A stretch of DNA of 64,000 nucleotides from Patescibacteria group bacterium (GTDB lineage Bacteria > Patescibacteriota > Minisyncoccia > Phycocordibacterales > UBA2100), in NCBI GenBank assembly GCA_038062075.1, contig JBBTXY010000003.1:17589-81588 (forward strand), written 5' to 3'. The notes beneath the pieces are model-generated. The model worked only from the letters and a program-made list of their open reading frames with translations, did no database searches and was not told the origin of the DNA. Positions 4,323 to 27,639 of the stretch are shown piece by piece (position 1 is the first letter of the stretch; each line of letters begins with the position of its first letter). The position numbers and the translations under genes were made by a program.

Positions 4323-5492
4323 ATGTTCACCATTTTTGCCAACATGTTCATAAACTCGGAGGAGCGCTTCGAGCACCTGAAGGATTCGTTCGAATCGTTC
4401 AGTACCGTGAGCGATGATTGGCTCATCAATATCCGAGGAAGATTTCGTGAACCTGTCATCGCCTGGCTTAAGGAGCGTCTCGGTGATAGAGCGACCTTTT
4501 TCGAACTCCTCGACGATTCGCGCGGCTGGACCGTGAATTCACTGGACATGGTTCGGCACGCCAGACACCCGTATGTCTTGTTCTGGCTGGAAGATCATAT
4601 GAATATCGCTCCGCAGTCGTATCTGCGCGATGTAGTCGAGGAGATGGCGGAGCACAAAGCCGACTACCTCCAGCATTCGTGGTGGCAGAACGGAAAATAC
4701 AGGCACTATTTTGACATCTTTGACCGACAACAGGGCACATCGATCGACACAGTCACCATTGGATATAACGAGTGGAAGAAGTGGCAAGACGCTGGCGACA
4801 ACGTGCAAATCATCTCTCTTCTCGGTATTTTCGAGAAGCATTTTCTCATCAAGATGCTGCAGTACGATCGCTTTATGCTTCCCATGTCGGTTAGGTCGTG
4901 GATTTTTCGCATCATGACTTTGTTGCAGCGGATGGGCCTGCGTTTCGATCAAAAGAAATGGTATCACCGGATCAATCGCTTGCTGCATTTCAAGATCCGC
5001 AGGCAACCGAAGGAAACCCCGCACGATTTCGAGAAAGAGCCGAATCGTTTTGACGTTCTTCCGATCCGGACTTCGGTTCCGCACCGCGAATTGTTCGCGT
5101 GCATGGATGATGATGACGATCCGGCGTGGAGGTCGTCTTTGATGACGCGCGGTCTCTACCCCTTGCGGGATCGCCTCGTGCGGTGGGACGAAAAAAAGCA
5201 GCCTGCGAAGCATTCACGCACCATCGCGGCGCTTAAGAAGGGCGCGTCGCTCCGGGAAGCGTACTGCTACTACAGCGCGAAAGGGGTGCGCCACGTGCTT
5301 TCTCGCGAATATATCCGCGTCGCGCGTGGGCGCGTCCGGGTTGCGGTGAAAGACGAACATGTCGAGCTGGGGGCGGGAGAAGGAGCCGCATTTTTCACCA
5401 ACATTCTACACGACATCGTCGCACTCGAAGACGCGGAGATCGAGCGATTCACGCCTGCAATCGGGCTTGCCCCGCACTATCTCCTGACGTAG
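4323..5492 (+). CDS. Hypothetical protein in glycan operon (no recognised domain)
   Basis: 389-aa ORF, tightly packed in operon; Trp/His-rich, no family recognised by eye. Confidence 0.5.
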   Translation: MFTIFANMFINSEERFEHLKDSFESFSTVSDDWLINIRGRFREPVIAWLKERLGDRATFFELLDDSRGWTVNSLDMVRHARHPYVLFWLEDHMNIAPQSYLRDVVEEMAEHKADYLQHSWWQNGKYRHYFDIFDRQQGTSIDTVTIGYNEWKKWQDAGDNVQIISLLGIFEKHFLIKMLQYDRFMLPMSVRSWIFRIMTLLQRMGLRFDQKKWYHRINRLLHFKIRRQPKETPHDFEKEPNRFDVLPIRTSVPHRELFACMDDDDDPAWRSSLMTRGLYPLRDRLVRWDEKKQPAKHSRTIAALKKGASLREAYCYYSAKGVRHVLSREYIRVARGRVRVAVKDEHVELGAGEGAAFFTNILHDIVALEDAEIERFTPAIGLAPHYLLT

Positions 5493-5501: not shown

Positions 5502-6044
5502 ATGACCGTATCGAAGGGCAAAAAGCCCAAGCATTTCATCCTTGACGTGGACGGTGTCATGACCGACGGCCAGTTTTATTACTCTGCCGAGGGGAAGGCG
5601 ATGAAGGCGTTCGGGCCGGATGACCATGATGGGCTTCTCTTATTGAAGCCCTATATCAACATCCATATCGTGACCGGCGACAAGAAGGGATTTCCGATAA
5701 CCAGGAAGCGTATTGCTGACGATATGAAGATGAAGCTCGACGTAGTGAGCACGGTTGAGCGGCTGCAGTGGATGAAGGAAAGCGGGTATGAGCTCGATGA
5801 GACGATCTACATGGGAGATGGCATTTTTGACGCCGTCGTCTTCGATAAAGTGGCGTATGCAATCGCGCCCGCGAATGCGTTCTACCTCACCAAAGAGCGC
5901 GCTGATTTTGTGACGCGATCCGTTGGCGGCGACAGCGCCGTTGCGGAAGCATGCGTGCACATTCTTGAGAAATTCTTCACGCCGTTCGACCCCCTCCACT
6001 TCAAGCTCGAGAAGTCGAGCGGCGAGTGGGGCGCACACGCATAA
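5502..6044 (+). CDS. HAD-IIIA phosphatase, KdsC/YrbI family (KDO-8-P / sialic-acid-9-P phosphatase-like)
   Basis: 'LDVDGVMTDG' motif I; typical KdsC length of 180 aa. Confidence 0.7.
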   Translation: MTVSKGKKPKHFILDVDGVMTDGQFYYSAEGKAMKAFGPDDHDGLLLLKPYINIHIVTGDKKGFPITRKRIADDMKMKLDVVSTVERLQWMKESGYELDETIYMGDGIFDAVVFDKVAYAIAPANAFYLTKERADFVTRSVGGDSAVAEACVHILEKFFTPFDPLHFKLEKSSGEWGAHA

Positions 6045-6046
6045 CT

Positions 6047-7621
6047 ATGAAGCACAAAGTCTGCATTCTCGCGGCAGGAGTGGGGAATCGGATGGGCGAG
6101 CTCTCCGAGCACGTCAATATCGCCGTCTTGCCCGTCAACAACAAAGCGGTGATTTCCTACATCATCGAGAAGTTCCCGATGCAGACCGAGTTTGTGATCG
6201 CGGTCGGCCACAAGAAAGAGACCGTCATCGACTATTTGAAACTTGCGCATCCCGAGCGAAGATTCACCTTCGTGCACGTCGACAAATACACCGGTCCGGG
6301 CACGGGCCCCGGGTACAGTATCCTGAAGTGCGAGAAGCACCTCCGGGAGCCCTTTATATTCTTTACGGCCGATACCATGGTCTTGGAGGATATTCCTCCG
6401 CCGGATCAGAACTGGATGGGAATCGCGCCGGTCAAGGAAACCGAGCTTTACTGCACGGTCCGCATGAGGAACAACCTCATCGTCCAGCTCGACAACAAGA
6501 TAAAGACCGACAACAAATTCGCTTTTATCGGGCTCGGCGGGGTGAAGGACTATGAAGATTTCTTCAGCGTGCTCACGCATGACCAGGAAATCCAGAAAGG
6601 CGAAGTGCAGGTCGTGACCGGATTTGCGCGCCTCATTGAAAAGAAACTCGTGCCCATAGGCTTCACGTGGTTTGACACCGGCTCCTTTAAGAACTACGCG
6701 GACACCAACCGCAACTTCTCCGGCGGCGGCACAAAATTCGATTTCAGCAAGGGCGATGAATTTCTGTATTTTGTGAACGGTCGTGTCATCAAGTTTTTTG
6801 CTGACGCGAAGACAGCGAAGAACCGCTATGAGCGCGCCACAAAACACCTGAAAGGTCTCGCGCCAAAAATGGAAGCGCACCGCGGCAATTTCTATTCGTA
6901 CAAACTCGTCGAAGGGCAGACGCTCTACAGCATGCTGAACGCGCGGCTCGTCAGGGAATTTCTCGCGTGGGCGTCCAAGCATCTGTGGAAACCGCTCAAG
7001 CTCGACGCGAAGAAGAAAAAAGAATTCGCCGCCGCGAGCAGGCGCTTTTATCGCGACAAAACGCTCGAGCGCGTCGAGGCATATCAGAAAAAAGTCGGGG
7101 AAGGAGAACGAGCAATCATCAATGGCCTCGAAGTGCCGCCGATTGCCGAGCTCCTCGGTAAGGTTGACTGGGACACGATGTCGGAGAGTATCCCCGTTCC
7201 CTTCCACGGCGATCTGCAGTTCGACAACGTTCTCTACGTGGGCGCAAAGAAAGGGCGGCATCCGTTCGTTCTTTTGGACTGGCGTCAGGATTTCGGCGGC
7301 CTCATCCACGCCGGCGACCTCTACTACGACCTCGCCAAGCTCTACGGCGGAGTGACGATGTCCTACCCCTTGATCAAAGAAGGCATGTTCACCTACACGG
7401 GCACGGACACCTCGGCCGACTACAAATTCTTCATCAAGAGCGATCTTCTGGAAGCCAAGGACGAGCTGGAAGATTTCATTCTCGCCAACAAGTACGACCT
7501 CAAAAAAATCCGGACGCTGACCGCGCTCATATTTCTCAACATGGCGCCCCTCCACCACGACCCGTTTGACCGGCTGTTGTACCACCACGGACGCTCGATG
7601 CTCCACAAAGCACTGAAGTGA
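6047..7621 (+). CDS. Bifunctional sugar-1-P nucleotidyltransferase (N) :: APH/choline-kinase-like kinase (C)
   Basis: N-terminal 'ILAAGVGNRMG' NTP_transferase P-loop; C-terminal 'HGDLQFDNVLY' Brenner kinase motif and 'DWRQD'. Same architecture as LicC-LicA and MurU-AmgK systems. Confidence 0.7.
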   Translation: MKHKVCILAAGVGNRMGELSEHVNIAVLPVNNKAVISYIIEKFPMQTEFVIAVGHKKETVIDYLKLAHPERRFTFVHVDKYTGPGTGPGYSILKCEKHLREPFIFFTADTMVLEDIPPPDQNWMGIAPVKETELYCTVRMRNNLIVQLDNKIKTDNKFAFIGLGGVKDYEDFFSVLTHDQEIQKGEVQVVTGFARLIEKKLVPIGFTWFDTGSFKNYADTNRNFSGGGTKFDFSKGDEFLYFVNGRVIKFFADAKTAKNRYERATKHLKGLAPKMEAHRGNFYSYKLVEGQTLYSMLNARLVREFLAWASKHLWKPLKLDAKKKKEFAAASRRFYRDKTLERVEAYQKKVGEGERAIINGLEVPPIAELLGKVDWDTMSESIPVPFHGDLQFDNVLYVGAKKGRHPFVLLDWRQDFGGLIHAGDLYYDLAKLYGGVTMSYPLIKEGMFTYTGTDTSADYKFFIKSDLLEAKDELEDFILANKYDLKKIRTLTALIFLNMAPLHHDPFDRLLYHHGRSMLHKALK

Positions 7622-7623
7622 GT

Positions 7624-8631
7624 ATGAGCCACGCGTTCAATGCACGCTTGGGCATTGGCCCGATGAGCACCGAAGCCATCGAGGCGACCTTTCACTATTC
7701 GCATTTCTACCGCAAAGAGCTGATGCTCATCGCGTCGAAAAATCAGATCGACTGGGGCGGCGGCTACGTCAACAACTGGACGACGAGGGACTATATAGAT
7801 TTCGTGCGTGCGATGCGTGCGAAATATCCTTTGGCCAACGTCCACGTGTGCCGCGATCACTGCGGGCCGGGATTCAACGGCATCCACGATTTGAAGGATG
7901 TCTACAAGACGATCGAAGACGACATCGCAAGCGGCTTCGATCTCATCCATATTGATTTCTGCCATTTTCTCGGCACCAAAGACGAGCAGTTCGACGAATC
8001 GAGACGGGCGATCAAGCACTGCCTCATGCTCAATCCGAAGATACGCATCGAGGTCGGTACCGACGAGAATATCGGTGTCACGTACGGTCTGCCGAACATT
8101 AACGAGCTTGAAAGGGAGATTGATTTCTTCAGAAGCGTCTGCGATCCGGAGTTCTACGTTGTCCAGACCGGCTCCTTGGTCTTGGAGACGCATCAGGCAG
8201 GCTCGTTCAACACGCCGTTCGTCGAGAAAATGTCCCTGCTCCTGCGTGAGAAGGGTATCAAAATGAAAGAGCACAATGCGGACTATCTCACGGAAGATGA
8301 CATTCTCCTCCGAAAGGGCCTTGTCGGCGCGATGAACATCGCGCCGCAACTTGGCGTGATTCAGACGCACTACATTCTTTCTAAATGCGCGGTGTATGGA
8401 CTCGACTCATCGGAATTTCTCAATAAAGTCTACGAGTCAGGCAAATGGAAGAAGTGGCTGAAGGATAACACTGCCGAGAACAAGATGCTCTGCTGTACGA
8501 TAGCGGGCCACTACCTCTTTGCTTCGGATGAGTACCGGCGTCTTGTTGATAAACTGGAGCGGTACGAAGATGTGCGGGAAGCTATCACGAACGAGCTTGC
8601 AAAGCTCATTGATCACTATGTTGCGCGGTAA
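7624..8631 (+). CDS. GatZ/KbaZ-family protein (tagatose-bisphosphate aldolase accessory / sugar-phosphate 4-epimerase family)
   Basis: 'LIASKNQIDWGGGYVNNWTTRDYIDFV...VCRDHCGP' resembles the GatZ 'ATSNQVNQFGGYTGMTP...GGDHLGP' block as recalled from memory. Confidence 0.55.
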   Translation: MSHAFNARLGIGPMSTEAIEATFHYSHFYRKELMLIASKNQIDWGGGYVNNWTTRDYIDFVRAMRAKYPLANVHVCRDHCGPGFNGIHDLKDVYKTIEDDIASGFDLIHIDFCHFLGTKDEQFDESRRAIKHCLMLNPKIRIEVGTDENIGVTYGLPNINELEREIDFFRSVCDPEFYVVQTGSLVLETHQAGSFNTPFVEKMSLLLREKGIKMKEHNADYLTEDDILLRKGLVGAMNIAPQLGVIQTHYILSKCAVYGLDSSEFLNKVYESGKWKKWLKDNTAENKMLCCTIAGHYLFASDEYRRLVDKLERYEDVREAITNELAKLIDHYVAR

Positions 8632-9331
8632 AACCATACTTATCACAGGCTCCTCCCGCGGTATCGGCGCCGCAACCGCGCGCCTCGCCAAAAAATACGG
8701 TGCGACTGTGATCCTACACGGGAAAGAGGATTCGAAAGAATTGAAGAAACTCTCCAAAGAGCTTGCCGCACAGTATGTTGTCTTTGATGTCGCAGACGAG
8801 CGCGCCGCTCGAAAGGCAATCGCGAAACGCGGCGTCGACATTCTGGTGAACAATGCGGGGATCAGCATCTCGAAGCCATTTCAGGAGCTCACGAGCAGGG
8901 ACTGGCATGAGACGCTTTCGACGAATGTCATGGGGGTCGTGAACGTCTCGAAAGCGGTTATTCCGGCGATGGTGAAAAGAAAGCACGGCACGATCGTCAA
9001 CGTCTCGTCAATAAAGGGGTACCCCCATACGGCCGGCCGTGCGGCCTTTGCCGCTTCGAAGGCCGCGATTATCACGCTTACGGCGAGCATGGCAAAAGAA
9101 TTCGCTCCGCAGATTCGCGTCAATGCCGTCGCTCCTGGATTCACGGAAACAGAGACGACGAAGAAAGCGTGGGGCGAGCGGATCTATACGCAGATCAGCA
9201 CAACGCCCTTAGGGAGAGCGGCACAGCCGGAGGAGATCGCACAAGCGATTCTCTTTCTCGCAAGCGACGCGTCAGCGTTCATGACGGGGCAGACGATGAT
9301 TGTTGATGGCGGATACAGTATCGCGGGGTAA
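8618..9331 (+). CDS. Short-chain dehydrogenase/reductase (FabG-like)
   Basis: 'TILITGSSRGIGAATA' Rossmann, 'NNAG', S-Y-K triad region; starts inside upstream gene end. Confidence 0.8.
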   Translation: MLRGKTILITGSSRGIGAATARLAKKYGATVILHGKEDSKELKKLSKELAAQYVVFDVADERAARKAIAKRGVDILVNNAGISISKPFQELTSRDWHETLSTNVMGVVNVSKAVIPAMVKRKHGTIVNVSSIKGYPHTAGRAAFAASKAAIITLTASMAKEFAPQIRVNAVAPGFTETETTKKAWGERIYTQISTTPLGRAAQPEEIAQAILFLASDASAFMTGQTMIVDGGYSIAG

Positions 9332-9340
9332 TATACCGGT

Positions 9341-9811
9341 ATGGATCGGAAAAAATGGAGTCAGGAGGAAAAAGATGTTAAGCTTGTCGCGAAGCCGTGG
9401 GGTAACGGCACGATTGGCGGCGTGGAAGGGGTTGGAGAACTGTGGCTCAATTACAAACGCGGGGAGAACGTGGGCGATGAAGAGAAGCGCTATGTGTTCA
9501 AGAAACTCTACATCAAGAAGGGAACCAAGACGAGCTTCCAATATCATATAAATAAATTGGAGACGAATCACCTCATCAGCGGTCTGGCAGAAGGACACAT
9601 GGAAAATGACAACGGAGAGATGGAGAAGAGTATTTTCGGGCCTGGTGATTCGTGGACTATTCCCTGCGGCAAAAAACATCGTCTCATCGCGCTTGAGGAT
9701 ATGGTCATGTTGGAAGCTTCGACGCCGGAAGTGGATGATGTGGTGCGCATCGCAGATGACACAGGTCGTGGAGACGGCCGCATCGAAAGCGAGCACCAAA
9801 AGGGAAACTGA
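9341..9811 (+). CDS. Cupin-fold protein, type-II phosphomannose-isomerase C-domain-like
   Basis: 'KPWG...ELW' and 'GPGDSWTIPCGKKHRL' cupin motifs. Confidence 0.6.
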   Translation: MDRKKWSQEEKDVKLVAKPWGNGTIGGVEGVGELWLNYKRGENVGDEEKRYVFKKLYIKKGTKTSFQYHINKLETNHLISGLAEGHMENDNGEMEKSIFGPGDSWTIPCGKKHRLIALEDMVMLEASTPEVDDVVRIADDTGRGDGRIESEHQKGN

Positions 9812-9812
9812 T

Positions 9813-10730
9813 ATGGCTGAAACACTCCAACAAAAAGAGCCGTCACTCGTAGAACGATTCAAAGAGATTGGTTTCGATGATCATGTGATGCTTGCGGCAC
9901 AAGGTGCCGCGCGACTGGGTGCGCGGCAGATATTGAAATTCCACGGTGCGAGTCAGGAGAAACTTCGAACGGAATTGAAGGCAGGCGATATGACTCCTGT
10001 TACGGCTGCGGATATTGCATCGGAAGAGGCGATTCTCAAAATCATAACGACTCGATTGTATTCTCCAGACGAAGTACATGCGGAGGAAAAAGGCCGCGCT
10101 GATACCGCTGAGCACAGTATTATGTGGTACGTTGATCCTCTGGATGGCACTCGGAGTTTTACGCGTGAACAAACAGCTTCCACTGTAGGTATCTGCATGT
10201 ATGAACACAACGAGCCACACACCGCAGTAATCTGTCGACCGTTCCAGTGTGAGCTATTACTCGCGGGTAAAGGAAGAGGCGCATTTGTATTTCCACTTGA
10301 CGACAAGCAGAAAATAATCGGTCCGGCAAAGCGCGTTCACGTAGCAGAGAGAAAAGATCTCACAGGTGGGATTTTCTATTGGGACGGCGTCATGACAGGA
10401 AAGAATGTCGATCGTGCCCTCAGGATGTTTGAAGGGGTGATAGCGGATACCGGAAAAACCGATTTCCGCGCGTTGGGGACGAATATAGGCGAGCAGGCCG
10501 AAGTTGCGCTCGGACACGGCGACTTAAAGTTAACGACCGGCGTCGGGGGATTCTACGATATCGCAGTGGGGGGGTTAATAATCCAGGAAGCCGGAGGGGA
10601 GGTTATTGATGAAAACGGCAAGCCGATAAGCCCGGGATCTAAAGCTGCGCTCTTTGGTAATCCGGAACTCATTAAAAAGTACGGCCCCTTGTTCCAACAG
10701 TGCTATGCGGGCTATGACGGTTTCGCTTAG
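9813..10730 (+). CDS. Inositol monophosphatase family protein (IMPase/FBPase/CysQ fold) paralogue 1
   Basis: 'WYVDPLDGTRSF' plus 'EE' metal-binding motifs. Confidence 0.8.
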   Translation: MAETLQQKEPSLVERFKEIGFDDHVMLAAQGAARLGARQILKFHGASQEKLRTELKAGDMTPVTAADIASEEAILKIITTRLYSPDEVHAEEKGRADTAEHSIMWYVDPLDGTRSFTREQTASTVGICMYEHNEPHTAVICRPFQCELLLAGKGRGAFVFPLDDKQKIIGPAKRVHVAERKDLTGGIFYWDGVMTGKNVDRALRMFEGVIADTGKTDFRALGTNIGEQAEVALGHGDLKLTTGVGGFYDIAVGGLIIQEAGGEVIDENGKPISPGSKAALFGNPELIKKYGPLFQQCYAGYDGFA

Positions 10731-10738
10731 AGCGCCCT

Positions 10739-11458
10739 ATGATCAACTATAAGGTTCTACTTCCGACATCTGGTACGGGTTCGCGACTGAAGGAAATAAC
10801 AAAAAATACCAATAAAGCATTAGTCTCTATTGCAGGAAAGCCTGCCATTGAATATATTCTTTCCTCTTATCCCAAAGAGGTACCAATAGTCGTCACGCTC
10901 GGGTACCTCGGAGAGAGCGTGAAAGCGTACCTCGAAAGCAATCACTCTGATCGGACATTCGAATTTGTGTGGGTTGATAAGTACGAAGGGCCCGGATCGA
11001 GCCTTGGCTATTCGATGCTGAAAGCAAAAGACAACCTCCAGTGCCCCTTCATCTTCCACGCCTGCGACGGCATCTTTGTGGAGCCTATCCCTACGCCGGA
11101 ATACAACTGGATAGGCGGATTTGTGGATGACTGGGAGACGACTAACTTGCCGCTTGAACAGTACCGGACACACACAATGAAGGACGGCGTGATACTCAAT
11201 CTCAATGACCGCGGAATTCCCGGATTTGATTCCATTCACATCGGCCTCGACGGCATCTTCGATTACAAAATCTATTGGGAGACCCTGCAGGCGATTTACG
11301 ATAAAGACCCGAACGACGCGCAAATATCCGATGTGCCCATTCTTGATGCGATGATACAAGCAGGCGTGCAATTCAAATGGATCCCCTACAAAGTCTGGCT
11401 CGACACGGGGAATATTCCCGCACTGCAGAGAACCACAGATTTTCTTTCTACTCAATAA
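10739..11458 (+). CDS. Sugar/alcohol-phosphate nucleotidyltransferase (LicC-like), paralogue of the N-domain of 6047-7621
   Basis: 'KVLLPTSGTGSRL'; 'FVWVDKYEGPGSSLGYSML..PFIFHACDGI' is collinear with 'FVHVDKYTGPGTGPGYSIL..PFIFFTADTM' in the fusion. Confidence 0.7.
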   Translation: MINYKVLLPTSGTGSRLKEITKNTNKALVSIAGKPAIEYILSSYPKEVPIVVTLGYLGESVKAYLESNHSDRTFEFVWVDKYEGPGSSLGYSMLKAKDNLQCPFIFHACDGIFVEPIPTPEYNWIGGFVDDWETTNLPLEQYRTHTMKDGVILNLNDRGIPGFDSIHIGLDGIFDYKIYWETLQAIYDKDPNDAQISDVPILDAMIQAGVQFKWIPYKVWLDTGNIPALQRTTDFLSTQ

Positions 11459-11499: not shown

Positions 11500-12186
11500 T
11501 CACTGAATGAGTTGTTCTCGCGCCCACGCGAGCAGTTCTATCGGCAGGTCAGGTTGAGGGTCGCTCCAACCCTTTCCCGGCCAGTCTGCTACACGCACAA
11601 ACTCGTTTAAAAGTTCTGCGCGATGCAGGGGGTTTTCTGCACACAAAGGATCATGCATACACACCACCTGATAGTCGGCAGAGAAACCTTTCTCATCCCG
11701 TGCGATTTTTGTGTGCACGGCATACACCCGCCGAGCACTCCTTGGGTGTACCACCAGAATGATCCGAGTATGTGGCAATCCAAGCCGCACGATCGTGTCT
11801 ATGCCGAAGCGGGAGTTTTCTGCCCCGTTCTTTGCTTTTGTCTCAAGGCGGATCACGTCGCAGGGTACACCGTGGTCAGCGACCAGCAGATTTCTTTGAT
11901 GTATCGCCTCGGAACCGGAAGCTCTGGATAGCTCGCCGGAGTCTTTGCCGATGCCGCCTGTAAGCAAGATCCAGTCGATCTTTCCCAGGCGGTACAGTTT
12001 GGCTGCCGCCCGCGCCACCTCCGCATCTTCCCTGCAGAAGACAAAAGCGCCATTGGCATATTGTACACGGGAGTCATCCGGGGGCAGGAGTCCCATACCC
12101 ATGTACAACGCAACCTGCTGAAGTTTCTCTGAGTCCTTCAAAGGACCCTCCTCTCTGTTCGCTCTTCGCTTCAGCAAGCGAAGCAC
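11500..12186 (-). CDS. DUF218 / YdcF(ElyC/SanA)-like envelope-associated protein
   Basis: 'WILLTGGIGKDSGELS..SEA...ETKAKNGAENS' DUF218 pattern. Confidence 0.55.
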   Translation of the reverse strand: MLRLLKRRANREEGPLKDSEKLQQVALYMGMGLLPPDDSRVQYANGAFVFCREDAEVARAAAKLYRLGKIDWILLTGGIGKDSGELSRASGSEAIHQRNLLVADHGVPCDVIRLETKAKNGAENSRFGIDTIVRLGLPHTRIILVVHPRSARRVYAVHTKIARDEKGFSADYQVVCMHDPLCAENPLHRAELLNEFVRVADWPGKGWSDPQPDLPIELLAWAREQLIQ

Positions 12187-12351: not shown

Positions 12352-13227
12352 CTAAACGCGCAACACCTTGTCGCATAGATAGTCGACGATTTGCGGTGAG
12401 TTGCCGGTAACGAGGACGTCATACGCGAGGACGTCAAGAGGGTCGCATTCGGTGAATGAAAAGAGCTCCTTCTTGAACGCCCGGCAGAATCCGCCTGCCT
12501 GCTCCACGAGCAGTGACCCGCAGACATCCCACGGGCCGCCGATTGCGAGCGTGAGCGATCCGGCGATGGAGCGAGCACCATTCGCGACGAGCGCCTGATG
12601 CAAGCCGTTCGAGCCCGGGAGCAGGATTTTCACCTCGCCGTTAAGCGAAGCAAAGAGCTTCGCAGTCTGCGCATCGGTGAGTATCTGCCGACCAGCGCGC
12701 TTAAAGCCATGCGAGACGTCGACGAGAATTGTCAGTTGCTCGTTGACCTCGCTCGTCCTCTTGCCGTCCCATTCGTTGCCGACTTGTATCGGGGCCGAGT
12801 TTTCTCCTGTGGCGAAATTGTGCCACAGAAGCTGGGTTAGCGTTATGTCGCTCGCTGACCATATCCGGCCGGTAGCCGGTTCGCCAATGACGCACCGTGT
12901 TACCTTATGTACATTGTGGTCGTACGTTGCCGCGATGACTGTTGATGTTGCCAATCCGATGGCGAAGGCTCGCGTGCCGTCCATCGGATCCACCAATATT
13001 TTGACTGGCGCATCCACCGTGTGTCGGTCGGACTCCTCGGCATGGATGTAGGTGCCGGGGATGCCTTGCAGAACCTCAAGCATTGCCGCTTGGCTCTGCT
13101 TGTCGGTCGGCGTCACTTGCGTGCCGTCCGTCTGCTTCACTGCGGTCGTGGTCGGCCGGCCTTGGTTGGCACGGACGACTTTCATGCCCGCGATCACTGC
13201 CGTCGTGAGACGGTCGAGCATCTCCAT
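12352..13227 (-). CDS. Inositol monophosphatase family protein paralogue 2
   Basis: 'ILVDPMDGTRAF' motif. Confidence 0.75.
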   Translation of the reverse strand: MEMLDRLTTAVIAGMKVVRANQGRPTTTAVKQTDGTQVTPTDKQSQAAMLEVLQGIPGTYIHAEESDRHTVDAPVKILVDPMDGTRAFAIGLATSTVIAATYDHNVHKVTRCVIGEPATGRIWSASDITLTQLLWHNFATGENSAPIQVGNEWDGKRTSEVNEQLTILVDVSHGFKRAGRQILTDAQTAKLFASLNGEVKILLPGSNGLHQALVANGARSIAGSLTLAIGGPWDVCGSLLVEQAGGFCRAFKKELFSFTECDPLDVLAYDVLVTGNSPQIVDYLCDKVLRV

Positions 13228-13363
13228 TTCTGTACTCCCTTAAAGAGCGAGTGGCATAATGCCACGAGGCAAAAACTATATCACGCCGATAGCAATGTGA
13301 CAAGAGTCGCATTGCCGCTTGTGCTCGAGTCAAAAAGGCTCCATTAATGATATTGTATGCACA

Positions 13364-14278
13364 ATGAAGAAGAAGATTTTGGTGACTGGAGTCGCTGGAT
13401 TCATCGGAAGCAATCTCGCGAAAAGGCTCGTCGAGGCGGGGTATGACGTGGTCGGCTTGGACAACTTTTCCCAGGGCATCCCCGAGCATGTGCCTTCCGG
13501 CATGCGTTTCAAGCAAGCCGATATCCGCTCCCGCGACATAGCACCACTCTTTCGTGGGATAGACGTCGTCTTTCACCTTGCCGCGAAGAATTCGCTTCGG
13601 GATTGCCAGGAAGATCCTGTGGGCACGATGGAGATGAATGTCGTCGGGACCGCGAACGTTTTCGACGTGTCCTTAAAAGCCGGCGTGAAGAAAGTGATCT
13701 ACGCGCAATCGTCGGTTGTTGAAGAAGGCGAGGAGCGCAGAAAAGGTTTCTATGCGATAAGCAAGATCACAGATGAGCTACTCGCGGGCGGGTTTCAGAC
13801 TATGGGTCTCACGACGGTCGGCCTCCGCTATTTCAATGTCTACGGCCCGGGGCAGGATTATCGCCGCTCCTCGCCGCCCATTATGAGCCGCTTCATCTCC
13901 ACGCTCCTCAAAGGGGAGCAGCCAGTTCTTTTTGAGGGTGATGAGAACAACAAGCGCGATTTCATACACGTCGACGACATCAACGATTTCCATCTCCTCT
14001 GTGTCGAAGACGAGCGGGTCGACAATCGAGTGTTTCGGCTAGGGACCGGGAAGAATTTCTCGATGGTTGAAGTGCTCGATACGGTTCAGAAAGTGCTCGG
14101 CACTCACACCGAGTCCTCCCACAAGCCGCGCCCTCCGCATGATCCTCCAGTCCAAACCCTCGCCGATATCAGCGAAACGACCGCACTCGGATGGCAGCCG
14201 ACAATCGGGCTTGAAGAAGGAGTCCGTAGTATGGTGCCCTATATCAAGGCTGAAATAGAGCGCGGGGCTCTCAAGTAG
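13364..14278 (+). CDS. NAD-dependent nucleotide-sugar epimerase/dehydratase (extended SDR)
   Basis: 'ILVTGVAGFIGSNL', 'YAISK' YxxxK. Confidence 0.8.
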   Translation: MKKKILVTGVAGFIGSNLAKRLVEAGYDVVGLDNFSQGIPEHVPSGMRFKQADIRSRDIAPLFRGIDVVFHLAAKNSLRDCQEDPVGTMEMNVVGTANVFDVSLKAGVKKVIYAQSSVVEEGEERRKGFYAISKITDELLAGGFQTMGLTTVGLRYFNVYGPGQDYRRSSPPIMSRFISTLLKGEQPVLFEGDENNKRDFIHVDDINDFHLLCVEDERVDNRVFRLGTGKNFSMVEVLDTVQKVLGTHTESSHKPRPPHDPPVQTLADISETTALGWQPTIGLEEGVRSMVPYIKAEIERGALK

Positions 14279-14310
14279 ACAAGCCCAGATCAAGGGAGTA
14301 CTCTGGCACA

Positions 14311-15303
14311 ATGATAATCACACGGACGCCATTTCGGGTGACTCTTGGCGGCGGCGGGACGGATTTGCCTGCCTACTACGAAAAACACGGCGGGTTCATC
14401 TTTTCCGCCGGACTCGACAAATACATGTATGTGACGGTAAACCGCCCTATGGAAGATGATCTCGTCCGCATCAAATACAGCGCGACTGAAGTCGTCAAGA
14501 AAGTAAAAGACATCAAGCATCCGATCGCACGAGAAGCTCTTACCATGCTGGGCGTTGAGAAGCAGGTCGAGATCAGTTCGGTTGCGGATGTTTCTGCGGG
14601 TACTGGTCTTGGCTCATCGAGCTGTTATGCGGTCGGGATTCTCCACGCGCTCCACGTGATGAAGCGCGATTATGTGCCGCTCCAGACGATCGCGGAAGAA
14701 GATTTTCTTCTGGAGAATAAGAAACTTGGCCGTCCGATAGGGAAGCAAGACCCCTACATGGCCGCGTTCGGCGGGCTCACGGTCTTAGATATCGCCAAAA
14801 ACGGTTCTGTGAAAGTCCGCAAAGCAAATGTATCGCAAGAAGCGGCCGACACGCTGAATCGCAACATGCTCATGTTCTTTACGGGGGTCACACGCAGTGC
14901 CGACGACATTCTCAAGCAACAGTCAAAGGCCTTCAAAGGAAACAAAAAAGACGCGACCGAGAGCATGCACTACATCAAGGAGATTGGGCACGAGATACTT
15001 GCGGCCATGGAGGATGACGAAGTTGATGAAGTGGGAAGGCTCTTCGATGCACACTGGCGACACAAGAAGAAGACAGCAAGCGGCATGTCGAACTCGAAGT
15101 TTGATGCGATCTACGAGACGGCGAAAGATGCCGGGGCGCTTGGGGGGAAGATTTCCGGCGCTGGCGGCGGCGGATTCTTTACATTCTATGTCCCGGAGAG
15201 GCACAAAGAATTCAGGAAGGCAATGCAGAAGTACGGCCTTCGCGAACTTCGCTACCACTTTGACTTCGAGGGATCAAAAGTCTTGGCCGACATCAGCCAG
15301 TAG
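14311..15303 (+). CDS. hddA: D-glycero-alpha-D-manno-heptose 7-phosphate kinase (GHMP kinase)
   Basis: 'MIITRTPFRVTLGGGGTDLP' HddA-type N-terminus; GHMP 'GLGSSS' motif. Confidence 0.7.
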   Translation: MIITRTPFRVTLGGGGTDLPAYYEKHGGFIFSAGLDKYMYVTVNRPMEDDLVRIKYSATEVVKKVKDIKHPIAREALTMLGVEKQVEISSVADVSAGTGLGSSSCYAVGILHALHVMKRDYVPLQTIAEEDFLLENKKLGRPIGKQDPYMAAFGGLTVLDIAKNGSVKVRKANVSQEAADTLNRNMLMFFTGVTRSADDILKQQSKAFKGNKKDATESMHYIKEIGHEILAAMEDDEVDEVGRLFDAHWRHKKKTASGMSNSKFDAIYETAKDAGALGGKISGAGGGGFFTFYVPERHKEFRKAMQKYGLRELRYHFDFEGSKVLADISQ

Positions 15304-15305
15304 CT

Positions 15306-16040
15306 ATGAAGGATCCGAAGCCGGTGCACAAACTGCGTCTGAAGATATTCGCTGATGGCGCAGAGAAAGACGGCATGCTCGCGCTTGCGAAAGAGCCTTT
15401 TATTAAGGGGTTTACCACCAACCCGACTCTCATGAAAAAGGCGGGTATTACTGATTATGCGGCGTTTGCAAAAGATATTCTCGCCTCCATAACAAAAAAA
15501 CCCATCTCATTCGAGGTTTTTTCCGACGATTTTGATGAGATGGAGCGGCAGGCGCGCATCATCAATGCGTGGGGGGAGAATATCTACGTGAAAATTCCGG
15601 TTACCAACACGAAAAAGAAGTCGGCCGCGGCGCTCGTCAGAAAGCTCTCTCATGAAGGGATTCGACTCAATGTCACGGCGCTTCTTACGCTTGTGCAAGT
15701 GAAGGAAATGACCGCAGCGCTCTCGCCGAAAACTCCCGCGATCATTTCTGTCTTTGCCGGCCGCATTGCGGATACGGGTTACGACCCGCTTCCTATCATG
15801 AAAGCCGCAAAAGCGATCACCTTGAGAAAGAAAAATATTGAGCTTCTCTGGGCGTCGCCGCGCCAGCTCTTTGACATCTACAATGCCGAGGCTGCGGGAG
15901 CCGATATTATTACGGTGACGCACGACGTTCTCAAAAAACTCGACAAGATCGGGTACGACCATACGGCACTTTCCCTGGACACGGTGAAAATGTTCTATGA
16001 CGACGGCCAGAAAGTTGGCTACACACTCTATGAAGCGTGA
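15306..16040 (+). CDS. tal: Transaldolase (short Tal/Fsa type)
   Basis: 'LKIFADGAE...GFTTNPTLM' transaldolase signature; lies between hddA and gmhA. Confidence 0.8.
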   Translation: MKDPKPVHKLRLKIFADGAEKDGMLALAKEPFIKGFTTNPTLMKKAGITDYAAFAKDILASITKKPISFEVFSDDFDEMERQARIINAWGENIYVKIPVTNTKKKSAAALVRKLSHEGIRLNVTALLTLVQVKEMTAALSPKTPAIISVFAGRIADTGYDPLPIMKAAKAITLRKKNIELLWASPRQLFDIYNAEAAGADIITVTHDVLKKLDKIGYDHTALSLDTVKMFYDDGQKVGYTLYEA

Positions 16041-16047
16041 GGCAAAA

Positions 16048-16710
16048 ATGAGAACGAAGAAGAAGCGCACTCGCACAAAAAAGCGGATCGCAAGAAAAAC
16101 GAGCTACCACGATCACATTCACGGCTACTTGGACGAAGTGAAGCTTATCGCGGAGCGGATTGATCGCGAAGCGATCAATGACATGATCAACCTGCTTGCG
16201 GATGTGCGCGATAAAAAGGGGCGGCTCTTCATTCTTGGTGTTGGCGGCTCTGCGGCCAACGCTTCTCATGCCGTCAATGATTTTCGAAAAATCGGGCACA
16301 TCGAGGCATACACGCCGGTGGATAATGTCGCAGAGTTAAGCGCCCGTACGAACGACGACGGATGGGAATCGGTCTTCGCCCGATGGCTGGAGCGCAGTGG
16401 CGTTCGGAAAGATGACGCCGTCATGGTGTTTTCTGTTGGCGGCGGGAATGCCGAGAAGAATATAAGCGCCAATATCGTGCATGCACTTAACACTGCCAAA
16501 GCTGCAGGCGCGAAGATCATGGGTATCGTGAGCCGTGATGGAGGTTATACCGCACAAGTTGCCGATGCCTGTGTCATCGTGCCAGTCGTAAATCCCGACA
16601 ACGTGACCGCGCACGCGGAGGCGTGGCAGGCGGTCGTCTGGCACGCGATGGTCCTCCATCCGAAATTCAAGCGTATTGAGGCAACATGGGAGTCAATCCA
16701 AAAAAGATAG
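16048..16710 (+). CDS. gmhA: Sedoheptulose-7-phosphate isomerase (SIS domain)
   Basis: 'LFILGVGGSAANASHAVNDF' SIS motif; N-terminal Lys/Arg-rich extension. Confidence 0.7.
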   Translation: MRTKKKRTRTKKRIARKTSYHDHIHGYLDEVKLIAERIDREAINDMINLLADVRDKKGRLFILGVGGSAANASHAVNDFRKIGHIEAYTPVDNVAELSARTNDDGWESVFARWLERSGVRKDDAVMVFSVGGGNAEKNISANIVHALNTAKAAGAKIMGIVSRDGGYTAQVADACVIVPVVNPDNVTAHAEAWQAVVWHAMVLHPKFKRIEATWESIQKR

Positions 16711-17294
16711 AACTTATTCGCCAAGTGTGGGCAAAAGGGAACCGTGTCGCACGGCCCGCAGTTTTTTTTGACAGGGACGGGGTTGTGATCCGACAGCGTA
16801 ATGTGGTGAGCGAGGAGAAACATATGCGCCCGCTTGCGGGAGCAGCTGCAGGACTACGCTCACTTCAGGAGTGCGGATTTCTGCTCATCATCATCACGAA
16901 TCAGCCGTCCATTGAAAAGGGTATGGTGACGGAGGCGCGCGCGCGAAGACTTAATGAGTATTTATACCAGGAGCTCAAGAAAAAAAGAGTAACATTTGAC
17001 GCATCGTACACGTGTCCGCATCGTTTCGGGACGGAGTGCACCTGCCGCAAGCCGGGTCTCGAGCTCATCCGCGCGGCACAAAAAGATTTCAAAATTGATA
17101 TGAAGCAGAGCTGGCTTATCGGCGATACGACGCGTGATATGGAAACTGGACGCCGCGCCAAGCTAAAGACGATTCTCGTCAAAACCGGCGATGGCGGGAA
17201 AGATAAAAGATTTTTCAAAACGCGAGGGGACATTGAAACGCGAAATTTGCGCCTCGCGGCGCAGGCCATTGCAAAGAAGAAGGGCCGACTGTAA
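16686..17294 (+). CDS. gmhB: D,D-heptose 1,7-bisphosphate phosphatase (HAD-IIIA, Zn-binding CxHx..CxC)
   Basis: 'VFFDRDGVV' plus 'CPHRFGTECTCRKP' zinc motif typical of GmhB/HisB-N. Confidence 0.7.
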   Translation: MGVNPKKIELIRQVWAKGNRVARPAVFFDRDGVVIRQRNVVSEEKHMRPLAGAAAGLRSLQECGFLLIIITNQPSIEKGMVTEARARRLNEYLYQELKKKRVTFDASYTCPHRFGTECTCRKPGLELIRAAQKDFKIDMKQSWLIGDTTRDMETGRRAKLKTILVKTGDGGKDKRFFKTRGDIETRNLRLAAQAIAKKKGRL

Positions 17295-18565: not shown

Positions 18566-19552
18566 CTACGCAGTTGCATCAGGTCTGCGGACCGACCACC
18601 CATGCTTTGGCAGTTGGTCGAAGAGCCACTCTGCGATTGCTGGTTCGCCGGCGACGAAGCCGAGGCGGTTTTCGCGGCTCGCCACGGAAAAGGAACGCTC
18701 GTCGTATTCTGCTGCTGGAACGAGTTTCGAAGTCCCGTCGTTTGCATCCATGTCCGGGACGAGACGAAAGAATTTGAAGACCCTTCCGCTCTCGAGGACG
18801 GCGCGGTACATCGGTGCCCAATCCCATGGTTTTTGCGGCGTTTGGATCAGAGCCTGAAGTCTTCCGGTGGCTATTTGTGCAAGCGCTAAGAGGCCGGAGT
18901 TTGCCAGTGTCCACGCACGGATCTGCGACGCGATAGACGGGACGGCGGACATGAACGGCTGGTGGAGCGTCGCGTCAACTCCCATCGCTACAATTGCATC
19001 TTTGCGCGCTGTGCCTTCGTGCAACGGCTCGATGCGCTCGGGCTTCTTGGCACCCCATTCAGTAATGTACACACCTTTCCCTTTTTCTGCCGTAACCGTC
19101 ATACCGCCGTTGAGCGCCGGCGCGTGCAGGACGCTTCCTATAAGCTCGCCATGCTGCATAAGCCCTGCGCCAACCGACCAGGTGCCCAGTTTGTTCGCGT
19201 ATCCGGCCGTGCCATCTATGGGATCCATGACGACAACGTTGGCCATTTCGAGTATTCCCTTAGGATTATTGATATCAAGCACCTTCCCGCCGCCTACACC
19301 TCCTTCTTCGGAGAGAATGTAGGCCTCGGGAAATGCGTGGCCGATGTTCTCAAAAAGTATGTCTTGTGCGCGCACGTCCCCGCTGGTGATACCAGAACGA
19401 TGGCTTTCGTCTCCCTTGATCTCGAATGCCCGCTCTTCAAGCTCTTTTATCGATGAACCCGCTGAAACAACCGCACCTAATAATCGAGCGATTGATCTTG
19501 GATTTTCGAGTGTTACGTCAGTCCTTTCGATCATGTCATTCTTTGTGCGCAT
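18566..19552 (-). CDS. Inositol monophosphatase family protein paralogue 3
   Basis: 'VVMDPIDGTAGY' motif. Confidence 0.7.
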   Translation of the reverse strand: MRTKNDMIERTDVTLENPRSIARLLGAVVSAGSSIKELEERAFEIKGDESHRSGITSGDVRAQDILFENIGHAFPEAYILSEEGGVGGGKVLDINNPKGILEMANVVVMDPIDGTAGYANKLGTWSVGAGLMQHGELIGSVLHAPALNGGMTVTAEKGKGVYITEWGAKKPERIEPLHEGTARKDAIVAMGVDATLHQPFMSAVPSIASQIRAWTLANSGLLALAQIATGRLQALIQTPQKPWDWAPMYRAVLESGRVFKFFRLVPDMDANDGTSKLVPAAEYDERSFSVASRENRLGFVAGEPAIAEWLFDQLPKHGWSVRRPDATA

Positions 19553-20313: not shown

Positions 20314-21618
20314 ATGAGTTCGGGATATATCATAGGCGTCATAGGATTATGGCACTTGGGGGAGGTGTATTCGGCATGTTTGGCGGAGATCGGCCACACG
20401 GTCGTTGGGTTGAGTGAAGACATAACCCTCATTGAGAATTTCCAGAAGAACATTCCGCCGCTTGCGGAACCGAAACTCACCGAGTTGCTTGAAGCGAACC
20501 AGAAAGCCGGGCGGCTCTCATTCTCGACCGATCTATCGAAGGTGAAAGATTCCACGATCGTGTGGTTTACAGAAGATGTCCCGACTGACGAGAACGACAC
20601 GGCGGATGTCTCAGGACTTATCGGCACTGCGAAAAAGATCGCGCCATATCTCTTTCAAGGAGTTACCATCGCCGTTTCAAGCCAGCTTCCTGTTGGTACT
20701 TCTGCGAACATTATTGAGACGATCAAAGCCACACGACCTGATTTACAGTTTGAGTATTTCTATTCGCCGGAAAACCTGCGCTTAGGAGACGCGGTCAGGT
20801 GCTTCATGGAGCAGAAACGAGTCGTCGTGGGTGCACAAACACCGCGCGGACTGGAGGTGGCAAGGGAGATTTTCGCGCCCTTGAAGACGGAAATCGTAAG
20901 CATGTCGCCAGCATCTGCGGAAATGGCCAAGCATGCTCTGAATGCGTGGCTTGCGACGTCCATCGGATTCGCAAACGACCTCGCCGACGTGTGCGAGAAA
21001 GTCGGCGCTGATGTCGAGGATGTTATCAAAGCATTAAAGAGCGAGCCGCGGGTGGGGGAGAAAGCCTATCTTTTCGCGGGGCTCGGATTCGCAGGCTGGT
21101 CCATTGCTCGCGACTTGAAAGTACTCATGGCAGTAGCTGGAGAGAAGCACATTGAGCTTCCCATCATCGCTGGTGCCTACGCGAAAAACCGCGCGCGCAC
21201 GAGCATCGTCCTTGCCCGACTGCGCGAACGCTTCGGCGAGATCAAAGGTAAAACATTCGCCATTTTTGGCGTCACCTATAAGGCAGGAACGCCGACTTTG
21301 CGCCATTCGCAATCTCTTCAGGTAGAAGCGGAGTTATGGGCTGCGGGCGCGACGATCCGGCTCTACGATCCGCTCGCAAGAGCTGATGATGTTGCGGTCG
21401 TAACGCCCGCAGCGTTCTTTAACGATCCGTATGAGGCAGTGCAGGGTGCTGATGGCGTCCTTATCCTCGTTCCCGATAGAGCCTTACAGGAGTTGGATTT
21501 CAAAAAAATCGCATCTATAATGCGAACGCCGTTTCTTTTTGATGCACAAAACATTTTGGTTTCGAAAGAGACAACCATTCGCGCCGAAGGCATTGAGTAT
21601 AGTAGTATTGGACGATGA
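20314..21618 (+). CDS. Nucleotide-sugar 6-dehydrogenase family (UgdH/TviB/WbpA-like) with catalytic Cys replaced by Ser
   Basis: 'IGVIGLWHLGEVYSA' NAD fold; 'VCEKVGADVEDVIKAL' central domain; active-site block 'GLGFAGWSIARD' aligns to the canonical 'GxGxGGSCFPKD' (Ser codon TCC at 21100-21102). Confidence 0.75.
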   Translation: MSSGYIIGVIGLWHLGEVYSACLAEIGHTVVGLSEDITLIENFQKNIPPLAEPKLTELLEANQKAGRLSFSTDLSKVKDSTIVWFTEDVPTDENDTADVSGLIGTAKKIAPYLFQGVTIAVSSQLPVGTSANIIETIKATRPDLQFEYFYSPENLRLGDAVRCFMEQKRVVVGAQTPRGLEVAREIFAPLKTEIVSMSPASAEMAKHALNAWLATSIGFANDLADVCEKVGADVEDVIKALKSEPRVGEKAYLFAGLGFAGWSIARDLKVLMAVAGEKHIELPIIAGAYAKNRARTSIVLARLRERFGEIKGKTFAIFGVTYKAGTPTLRHSQSLQVEAELWAAGATIRLYDPLARADDVAVVTPAAFFNDPYEAVQGADGVLILVPDRALQELDFKKIASIMRTPFLFDAQNILVSKETTIRAEGIEYSSIGR

Positions 21619-23409: not shown

Positions 23410-24125
23410 TCACGCAAGCAGTCATATCAGCAGGAGGATTCGGGACTCGTTTGAAGCCATTTACTGATACTGCACCAAAGCCCATGGTGCCAATTTTAGG
23501 TAAACCGCTTCTGGAGTGGCACATCGAGCAATTTAAGAAGCATGGTGTGACCGAGTTTTTTCTTACGCTGCATTATTTGCCCGAGGTTATAAGGGAGTAT
23601 TTTCAAGACGGTTCATCCCGAGGCGTGCATATTGAGTATGTGGTTGAAGCAGAGCCACTCGGCTCTGCGGGAGGATTGAAACTCGTAGAGAAGAAATTAG
23701 ACACGCGATTCTTTTACATCTACGGCGATACCTTCAGTCTCATGGACTATTCCGCGATGGCACAAAACTACGCGACAAGAAAGGATCCTCTTGGCATGCA
23801 GAGGATGAAGCAGACCGGCGACTACGCTGATGCTGACGTTGCAGAACTCGATGAAAATTGCAGGTTTGTCGGCATTCATGCGAAGCCACATTCGCATATA
23901 TACAAAAACGCCTATCGTATGCGCGGCGTCTTTATTCTTGAAAAGGAGATATGCAACTTCATTCCAGATGGCCCGTCAGACTTGGCTAAGCAGGTGCTTC
24001 CAGCGGTGCTTGCCGCGGGCAAGAATTTCTACGGCTACGAGTGCGACGATTACTCGAAAGGCATTGATACTGTCGAAAAACTGCGGGAGGTTGAAAGCTA
24101 CCTCACAACGCGCGGGTTAGGATAG
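23400..24125 (+). CDS. Sugar-1-phosphate nucleotidyltransferase (HddC/GMPP-like)
   Basis: 'AVISAGGFGTRLKPFTDTAPKPMVPILGKPLLEW'. Confidence 0.7.
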   Translation: MGMITQAVISAGGFGTRLKPFTDTAPKPMVPILGKPLLEWHIEQFKKHGVTEFFLTLHYLPEVIREYFQDGSSRGVHIEYVVEAEPLGSAGGLKLVEKKLDTRFFYIYGDTFSLMDYSAMAQNYATRKDPLGMQRMKQTGDYADADVAELDENCRFVGIHAKPHSHIYKNAYRMRGVFILEKEICNFIPDGPSDLAKQVLPAVLAAGKNFYGYECDDYSKGIDTVEKLREVESYLTTRGLG

Positions 24126-25103: not shown

Positions 25104-25111
25104 CCAAAGGT

Positions 25112-27633: not shown

Positions 27634-27639
27634 CGCCGC

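Follow-up and report, generated by a model that had tools for sequence, protein, structure and literature searches.

A widespread nucleotidyltransferase-kinase fusion and its linked sugar-phosphate genes in Patescibacteria and DPANN archaea

The routes to guanosine diphosphate (GDP)-octose (LmbR/N/P/K/O, lincomycin) and GDP-valienol (AcbU/J/R, acarbose) follow the same logic as the nucleoside diphosphate (NDP)-heptose relay. Other pairs of kinase and transferase are LicA/LicC, fused as LicCA in some spirochaetes, and AmgK/MurU, whose MupP-AmgK-MurU route also contains a HAD phosphatase. The enzymes of NDP-heptose synthesis form a relay of isomerase, kinase, phosphatase and transferase, and both di-domain and tri-domain (isomerase/kinase/transferase) fusions occur (PMC11573728). 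We analysed a 64,000-nucleotide stretch of a Patescibacteria group bacterium (assembly GCA_038062075.1, contig JBBTXY010000003.1, positions 17,589 to 81,588 of the forward strand; hereafter the window), in which an original prediction had placed a nucleotidyltransferase domain fused to a small-molecule kinase at 6047-7621, with the architecture of LicC-LicA or MurU-AmgK. This gene encodes a real, intact, very widespread and uncharacterised bifunctional enzyme. We see an even chance that this enzyme stands at the centre of a conserved cassette for sugar nucleotides, in which the linked proteins work as a relay, a stand-alone transferase takes over or shares the transfer step and the fused transferase domain serves mainly for binding or as a scaffold.

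We class the cassette with the relays that activate sugars as nucleotides, a familiar kind of system that here takes a new form. Its closest functional analogue is the NDP-heptose relay (GmhA, HddA/HldE, GmhB, HddC/HldE), with each step assigned to a different fold and two enzymes added. Both systems co-encode proteins of the isomerase, kinase, HAD-IIIA phosphatase and transferase types, both show fusions of kinase with transferase and of isomerase with kinase and transferase, and both lie in surface-glycan clusters. Where the heptose relay has a SIS isomerase, a PfkB or GHMP kinase, a GmhB-type HAD and the cytidylyltransferase-like domain of HldE, the cassette has a cupin, an APH-like kinase, a YrbI-type HAD and an RmlA-like transferase, and it adds a GatZ-like enzyme and a reductase. 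All four protein types of the relay were co-encoded and variously fused; the reactions given below are inferred. The fusion itself was not a member of the HldE or HddA-HddC families, as it contained no PfkB, GHMP or CTP_transf_like domain and scored 16.9 bits against the HddC model (cut-off 300).

The fused enzyme and its family

The open reading frame (ORF) at 6047-7621 (+) encoded 524 amino acids from an ATG located 3 nt past the stop codon of the upstream gene (5502-6044), and all the features predicted for the fusion were present. The N-terminal nucleotidyltransferase domain (residues 1-225; 6047-6721, +) contained the motif ILAAGVGNRMG, matched Pfam NTP_transf_3 (E 2.9e-7) and had the RmlA/MurU/GalU fold, the top Foldseek matches of this half being RmlA (4ecm), MurU (8hhd/4y7u) and GalU (3juk) at E ~1e-10. 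Arg15, Asp109, Lys151 and Asp210 were present, and Ile25 occupied the place of the signature lysine. The domain matched the sugar-1-phosphate nucleotidylyltransferase model TIGR03992 over nearly its full length (residues 4-213, E 5e-15), whereas alignment with LicC, IspD and the ribitol-5-phosphate and inositol-1-phosphate (IPCT) cytidylyltransferases was limited to the first ~110 residues. In an alignment of 30 homologues, Asp109, Lys151 and Trp208-x-Asp210-x-Gly212, the W-x-D-x-G sugar-transferase motif, were invariant; Asp109, Lys151 and Asp210 were so even where the signature was degenerate (see below). Read from sequence rather than from structural superposition, the acidic residues and the lysine may correspond to the Mg-binding Asp110/Asp225 and the sugar-phosphate lysine of RmlA. 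The AlphaFold model of the full-length fusion had a predicted local distance difference test (pLDDT) score of 82.9; the signature loop (residues 13-28) fell below 50 and the remaining transferase core was confident. This may be a flexible or degenerate loop, or just a place of variable alignment.

The C-terminal domain (residues 226-524; 6722-7621, +) had the bilobal protein-kinase-like fold of the APH/choline-kinase-like superfamily, including the Brenner motif (HxDxxxxN), the Mg-binding Asp that follows it and the Lys of strand 3. Lys249, His387-Gly-Asp389-Leu-Gln-Phe-Asp-Asn394 (HGDLQFDN, 387-394) and Asp411 were invariant across the 30 aligned homologues, leaving the catalytic residues of the predicted kinase intact, and no conserved helix-C Glu was seen in this alignment. 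Pfam APH was below threshold for the window sequence (E 0.006) and matched 28 of the 30 homologues. PDB sequence and profile searches with the whole fusion returned transferases only, with no match to the kinase half. A 574-residue antisense ORF (5882-7606, -) was dismissed as a shadow of the fusion gene, since all homology was on the + strand.

The fold pairing of LicC-LicA and MurU-AmgK was thus correctly predicted, but membership in either family failed. AmgK/MurU, together with MupP, shares with the cassette an APH-fold sugar kinase, an RmlA-fold transferase and a HAD phosphatase; the known enzymes are separate, whereas the cassette family occurs in murein-free archaea and is tied to ketose-phosphate enzymes. 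The MurU model NF045761 scored 20.9 bits against a cut-off of 250, AmgK models gave no match at E<0.01, and occurrence in Woesearchaeota, Pacearchaeota, Nanoarchaeota and Iainarchaeota argues against recycling of N-acetylmuramic acid (MurNAc). LicA/LicC, like AmgK/MurU, resembles the fusion in architecture and in the principle of phosphorylating and then nucleotidylating a substrate. The kinase shared 15% identity with LicA, which was no nearer to it than the kinases of aminoglycosides or fructosamine, and did not belong to the choline/ethanolamine kinase family; unlike LicC, of which it is not an equivalent, the fused transferase had the W-x-D-x-G motif and aligned over its full length with sugar-1-phosphate enzymes. 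The pair did not group with LicCA. Membership in Fkp was rejected because the C-terminal domain has an APH fold and is not a GHMP kinase. The fusion family is unnamed and distinct from LicCA, AmgK/MurU, Fkp and HldE, and we found no account of the fusion or its cassette in the published literature on Patescibacteria/DPANN transferase-kinases, MurNAc recycling, tagatose/talose kinases and cytidine diphosphate (CDP)-linked routes.

The window proteins were identical to MEK7509189-195 of a Patescibacteria metagenome-assembled genome, whose names at NCBI include 'HAD hydrolase family protein', 'NTP transferase domain-containing protein', 'hypothetical protein' and 'cupin'. At 90% identity, homologues of the fusion formed ~3,000 clusters. 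Among these the 120 best were all full-length and 58-81% identical to the window fusion, came from Kaiserbacteria, other Patescibacteria, Pacearchaeota, Woesearchaeota, Nanoarchaeota and Diapherotrites/Iainarchaeota, and were named 'hypothetical', 'NTP transferase' or 'choline kinase' in their sources. Further members, 38-50% identical, came to light in the representative genomes of species that were scanned; they belong to Omnitrophota, Planctomycetota, Elusimicrobia, Bdellovibrionota, a Legionella sp., SAR86, Pelagibacteraceae and Thaumarchaeota. Several contigs of ~60% identity bear the labels Pseudomonadales, Bdellovibrionales or Gammaproteobacteria, perhaps through mis-binning. Searched alone, the kinase domain gave 1,734 clusters at 50% identity, 438 of them with E<1e-30, and most matches sat at residues ~230-525 of proteins of ~525 residues.

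Linked genes and natural fusions

The fusion gene belonged to a run of seven same-strand genes (5502-11458, +) packed with gaps of at most 8 nt or small overlaps. The first (5502-6044, +) encoded a KdsC/YrbI-type phosphatase of 180 residues, a cap-less HAD-IIIA enzyme with a conserved DxDGV motif (TIGR01670, E 2e-20; PDB KdsC 1j8d, E 5.5e-17); a phosphatase of KDN-9-phosphate was also among its similarities. Directly after the fusion, 7624-8631 (+) encoded a TIM barrel of 335 residues with a class-II-aldolase fold, resembling GatZ/KbaZ, which is a probable ketose-phosphate 4-epimerase or aldolase. GatZ and KbaZ convert fructose-6-phosphate to tagatose-6-phosphate, as shown genetically, and a metal site of GatZ has been proposed from a docking model (PMC11907403). 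The similarity to PF08013 was weak, below the cut-off for the window protein and above it for a Legionella sp. homologue. Among 73 sequences Arg77-Asp78-His79, His109/Asp111, Glu143 and Lys215/His217/Asn218/Asp220 were conserved, along with others, and Asp78-His79, Glu143 and His217 are putative counterparts of Asp87/His88/Glu171/His257 in the predicted metal site of E. coli GatZ. This matching paired VCRDHCGPG with GDHLGP, EVGTDE with IGTEVP and KEHNADY with EAHSTDY, which alignments supported in part. In contrast to GatZ, the window protein is ~335 rather than 420 residues long, and an Ile aligns to GatZ Glu44.

The fourth gene (8618-9331, +), whose ATG as read from the sequence overlaps the GatZ-like gene by 14 nt, encoded a classical short-chain dehydrogenase/reductase (SDR) of 237 residues (adh_short_C2, E 3e-58). 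It was followed by a small cupin of 156 residues (9341-9811, +) akin to the catalytic domain of type II mannose-6-phosphate isomerase, with conserved KPWG, SxQxHxxKxE, HR and DDxxRxxD motifs that we take to be those of that enzyme. Homologues of the cupin passed the PF01050 threshold, and UniRef labels one member of its cluster 'Mannose-6-phosphate isomerase type II C-terminal domain-containing protein'. The sixth gene (9810-10730, +) encoded an inositol-monophosphatase (IMPase)/CysQ/FBPase-family phosphatase of 306 residues (PF00459, E 2e-32; NCBIfam HisN/CysQ/IMPase, ~1e-22). Its start was placed at the ATG at 9810, overlapping the cupin stop codon, in preference to the mechanically called ORF 9606-10730 (374 residues), of which the first 68 codons overlap the conserved cupin in another frame. 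This phosphatase is an accessory part of an extended cassette, and the same position was filled in another locus (L060). The seventh gene, a second nucleotidyltransferase, is treated in the next section.

We evaluated gene neighbourhoods by tblastn of the window proteins against 82 non-redundant loci (numbered L) with a fusion homologue, counting partners within 6 kb. The HAD phosphatase was found in 67 of the 82 loci and the GatZ-like enzyme and the cupin in 75 each, and all three were present in 52 of the 60 loci having at least 4 kb of flank on both sides. This linkage spanned Patescibacteria, DPANN, Omnitrophota, Planctomycetota, Elusimicrobia, Bdellovibrionota, the Legionella sp. and Thaumarchaeota. 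An NAD(P) oxidoreductase was an almost constant companion, an SDR in 24/82 loci and a shikimate-dehydrogenase-like protein in 47/82. No locus had both and 11, many of them short contigs, had neither; the two are mutually exclusive, unrelated forms of one near-universal partner. The fusion and its partners were 55-65% identical between Patescibacteria and DPANN archaea, which is far above the expectation under vertical descent and points to exchange of whole cassettes between bacteria and archaea.

Natural fusions joined the same proteins further. The transferase-kinase was fused to a GatZ-like domain in one protein (P0253), carried an N-terminal cupin in three (P0272, P0282, P0288) and two N-terminal cupins in P0263, and in P0342 (1,390 residues) a GatZ-like domain and ~300 unassigned residues preceded cupin-transferase-kinase. 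Among the second transferases of DPANN loci, those in L048 and L061 were fused to a YrbI-type HAD, that in L020 to a phosphatase of the IMPase family and those in L025 and L033 to another HAD. Because such fusions join them, kinase, transferase, cupin, GatZ-like enzyme and phosphatase are likely to share one pathway, and a fusion of transferase-kinase with a GT2 glycosyltransferase (P0321) points to a glycosyl donor as the product. The surrounding genes encoded glycosyltransferases (GT2, GT4), polysaccharide deacetylase, Wzx-type flippases, PMT_2, methyltransferases and B12-radical-SAM enzymes, and the context of the cassette is thus glycan synthesis.

The second transferase and the fused signature

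The original prediction also included an unfused paralogue of the transferase domain at 10739-11458. This gene (+, 239 residues; hereafter NT2), the last of the run, was a true paralogue, 32% identical to residues 1-214 of the fusion (E 5e-37), and contained the conserved blocks that had been quoted. It is not a simple spare copy, however, since it keeps the G-x-G-x-R-(x)n-K signature that the fused domain has lost in part. In RmlA numbering we take this signature to be Arg15 and Lys25. The window fused domain reads GVGNR15MGELSEHVNI25AVLP, with Arg15 but Ile25, and in alignment with LicC its Ile stands opposite the lysine of the LicC 'PK'. NT2 reads SGTGSR16LKEITKNTNK26ALV and has both residues (Arg16 and Lys26).

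NT2 had 309 homologues, many of which shared a contig with a homologue of the fusion. The fused signature was degenerate, having lost Arg15 and/or Lys25, in 18 of the 77 loci scored, with Q/K, K/I, K/R, A/R, S/K, Q/A, Q/V, Q/S, M/H, K/H, R/P, R/T, H/K and P/K as substitutions. A second transferase lay within 10 kb in 17/18 degenerate loci compared to 6/59 canonical ones (Fisher p 3e-11, a value that ignores phylogeny), and the sole degenerate locus lacking one was 2.6 kb from a contig end. All of the second transferases examined (24/24) kept GxGxR...K. They had at least two origins: those of the window type, from Patescibacteria, were 60-100% identical to NT2 and ~34% identical to fused domains, and those of the other type, mostly from DPANN, were 44-64% identical to the local fused domain. 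Degenerate states appeared at seven or more separate places on a rough neighbour-joining tree. Our reading is that, with a second transferase at hand, the fused domain ceases to maintain its catalytic signature but is itself retained for binding or assembly. The window protein keeps Arg15 and has lost only Lys25, and loss of activity in it is plausible.

A proposed relay, its alternatives and the surrounding genes

We postulate that the cassette encodes an isomerase, kinase, phosphatase and transferase relay which would reproduce the logic of NDP-heptose synthesis from unrelated folds. In such a relay the GatZ-like enzyme would reshape a ketose phosphate, by epimerising fructose-6-phosphate at C4 to tagatose-6-phosphate or through an aldol reaction, and the cupin would isomerise the ketose phosphate to an aldose phosphate. 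The APH-type kinase domain would then phosphorylate the anomeric hydroxyl (C1) to give a 1,ω-bisphosphate, from which the KdsC/YrbI-type phosphatase would take off the distal phosphate, and a nucleotidyltransferase would join the sugar-1-phosphate to a nucleoside triphosphate. The resulting NDP-sugar could be used by the neighbouring glycosyltransferases and flippase. In this genome NT2, with its full signature, probably performs or shares the transfer step, and the fused transferase domain with Ile25 may persist chiefly as a module for binding or scaffolding. The order of kinase, phosphatase and transferase is favoured over that of MupP-AmgK-MurU because phosphatase-transferase fusions occur. 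The architecture and the intact kinase residues support, in general form, the predicted phosphorylation followed by nucleotidylation to a nucleotide-activated compound, but the part of that prediction which started from a free compound is unlikely. As the phosphatase, GatZ-like enzyme and cupin are nearly always linked, and in some cases fused, to the transferase-kinase, de novo synthesis from a ketose phosphate is suggested instead.

Several points weigh against this proposal. Its substrate, nucleotide and step order are all predicted, and its main gap is the reductase, a near-universal partner for which we could place no step. Some APH-like kinases phosphorylate non-anomeric positions and the fold does not reveal the hydroxyl, KdsC/YrbI phosphatases are known to act on 8- and 9-carbon sugar acids rather than hexoses, and the best direct PDB sequence match of the fused transferase was LicC, a phospho-alcohol transferase. 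The window fused domain retains Arg15, Asp109 and Asp210 and may stay active; replacing the equivalent lysine in GlmU reportedly costs only ~8-fold. The association of degenerate signatures with second transferases was tested without phylogenetic correction, and the tree was a rough neighbour-joining one. Lastly, in L060 the paralogue was located directly beside GmhB/HddA/GmhA-like genes, so it may serve that pathway.

The window itself contained a canonical NDP-heptose-type module (13319-17294, +) without a transferase of its own. It comprised a GalE/heptose-epimerase-like SDR, an HddA-like GHMP kinase (E 4e-45), a transaldolase, a GmhA-like SIS isomerase and a GmhB-like HAD (E 2e-37), with the HddA, GmhA and GmhB homologues at 14311-17294, separate from the fusion cassette. 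This set of transaldolase, isomerase, kinase and phosphatase recalls the GDP-octose genes of lincomycin. NT2 could be the missing HddC-type transferase of this module and not work with the fusion at all, which would also fit the L060 orthologue, immediately before the heptose-type genes, and the presence of such genes nearby in L005 and L051. We consider this unlikely: NT2 ends the packed operon of the fusion, two genes on the reverse strand stand between it and the heptose module, and its similarity to HddC was only 20.7 bits, against 91 bits for a conventional sugar-1-phosphate transferase encoded at 23400-24125. Moreover, three loci (L007, L009, L055) had the paralogue but no heptose genes in the fetched sequence (~6-10 kb downstream), the DPANN-type second transferases were linked to degenerate fused domains without heptose genes, and the degeneration of the fused domain in the presence of a second transferase would be left unexplained.

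A second alternative, on balance improbable, is a CDP-alditol or CDP-ketose route of the teichoic-acid or capsule type, where the transferase would act directly at the terminal phosphate of tagatose-6-phosphate or another ketose phosphate and an SDR or shikimate-dehydrogenase-like enzyme would then reduce the product to an alditol. Reduction of a nucleotide-linked ketose has precedents in CDP-6-glucitol and CDP-arabinitol synthesis. Such a route would give the near-universal reductase a role, would also use the GatZ-like enzyme, and agrees with LicC and inositol-1-phosphate cytidylyltransferase being among the sequence matches. It has no role, however, for the kinase, phosphatase and cupin, the most tightly linked parts and the ones fused to transferases, and the transferase aligned with phospho-alcohol enzymes at its N terminus only, as opposed to its full-length alignment with sugar-1-phosphate enzymes.

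Salvage of the AmgK/MurU or LicA/LicC type, in which free MurNAc, N-acetylglucosamine, a hexose or choline is phosphorylated and then nucleotidylated, with the HAD first removing a 6-phosphate as MupP does, appears more doubtful again. Patescibacteria of the Candidate Phyla Radiation (CPR) and DPANN organisms are scavengers, the pairing of an APH-like kinase with an RmlA-like or LicC-like transferase is the same, and MurU and LicC were among the best structural matches and the best PDB sequence match, respectively. Against this stand the low MurU score and the lack of AmgK, LicA or choline-kinase model matches at E<0.01; Choline_kinase was not among the Pfam families matched by 30 members, and in structure LicA and NahK came no nearer than the kinases of aminoglycosides or fructosamine did. 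DPANN archaea, in which the family is abundant, lack murein, and it would go unexplained why the transferase-kinase is almost obligately linked, and physically fused, to a phosphomannose isomerase-like isomerase and a ketose-phosphate enzyme of GatZ type. LicD (phosphocholine transferase) and choline-transporter (licB-type) families were absent from the Pfam matches obtained for the operon and for the majority of ORFs around it, scanned to ~29 kb (51-29438, where a few ORFs, e.g. 9341-9811, were outside the scan and some were matchless), and from the called genes of L001-L006. A highly improbable fourth route, modelled on the pneumococcal Gtp1/Gtp3/Gtp2 pathway to CDP-2-glycerol, would have the GatZ-like aldolase free dihydroxyacetone (phosphate) for conversion to CDP-glycerol by the HAD, reductase, kinase and transferase, and though it employs all of these and suits the LicC-like similarity of the transferase, it leaves no role for the cupin, to which the transferase-kinase is fused more often than to any other partner, conflicts with the whole-length resemblance of the transferase to sugar-1-phosphate enzymes, and calls for a GatZ-family enzyme releasing a free triose, for which we know of no precedent.

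The cassette most likely builds an activated sugar for the cell surface. This is presumably not an ordinary heptose, because a separate canonical heptose module lies in the same window. Our simplest guess is a talo- or galacto-configured hexose derived from fructose-6-phosphate; a longer-chain sugar is equally open, fitting as well with a YrbI-type phosphatase and an aldolase-fold enzyme. More tentatively, and at somewhat less than an even chance, all the parts taken together may describe an unrecognised de novo route to an NDP-sugar without an assigned biosynthesis (e.g. NDP-D-talose or a C4-epimeric heptose/octose), made by enzymes non-homologous to those of the heptose pathway, exchanged between Patescibacteria and DPANN as a shared building block of episymbiont surface glycans, with the fused transferase repeatedly becoming a pseudo-enzyme after a second transferase was acquired. 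Patescibacteria and DPANN make up a large share of microbial diversity and live attached to other cells, with almost no characterised surface chemistry. A cassette so conserved and embedded in glycan genes (55-65% cross-domain identity, ~3,000 clusters) probably specifies a common surface sugar. Identifying its product would add a nucleotide-sugar pathway and a marker for glycan typing in these lineages, and would give functions to GatZ-like, cupin and APH-like families now called 'hypothetical' or, wrongly, 'choline kinase'. The repeated decay of the signature alongside a second transferase is a clean natural example of pseudo-enzyme formation after duplication.

Genes around the cassette gave further observations. 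B12-binding radical-SAM genes and S-adenosylmethionine (SAM) methyltransferases flanked it in DPANN and CPR loci (L001, L002/L003, L006), and a C-methyltransferase-like gene followed it in the Legionella sp. locus (L075), which suggests that the sugar is further methylated. Also in L075, between the GatZ-like gene and the cupin, was a protein of 274 residues (8348-9172) with no Pfam match and with homologues in 14 other loci; it belongs to a more distant version of the cassette, at 40% identity. Directly upstream of the HAD gene, the window encoded a protein of 389 residues (4323-5492, +) with an unassigned N-terminal part of ~300 residues and a C-terminal cupin, for which no family match was found beyond a weak one to Cupin_2. 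Its homologues were within 6 kb of the fusion in 9/82 loci, including L005, L007 and L060 at 60-79% identity and L013, L024 and L051 at 37-44%.

Further downstream, a glycan island (20314-29438) encoded a UDP-glucose/GDP-mannose dehydrogenase, two GFO/IDH/MocA oxidoreductases, an SDR and a methyltransferase, together with a Wzx-type flippase (26266-27549, -) and a ManC-like GDP-mannose pyrophosphorylase (28341-29438). On the opposite strand after NT2 was a DUF218 (SanA/YdcF-like) gene (11500-12186, -), homologues of which (35-49% identical) adjoined the second transferase and fusion, or were at most a few kb away, in several DPANN loci (L006 7294-7920, L012 ~8562, L059 ~9290, L061 ~9391), and this gene may be part of the extended cassette. 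Three IMPase/CysQ/FBPase-family genes were located within 10 kb, at 9810-10730 (+), 12352-13227 (-) and 18566-19552 (-), and homologues of this family accompanied the second transferase in many loci.

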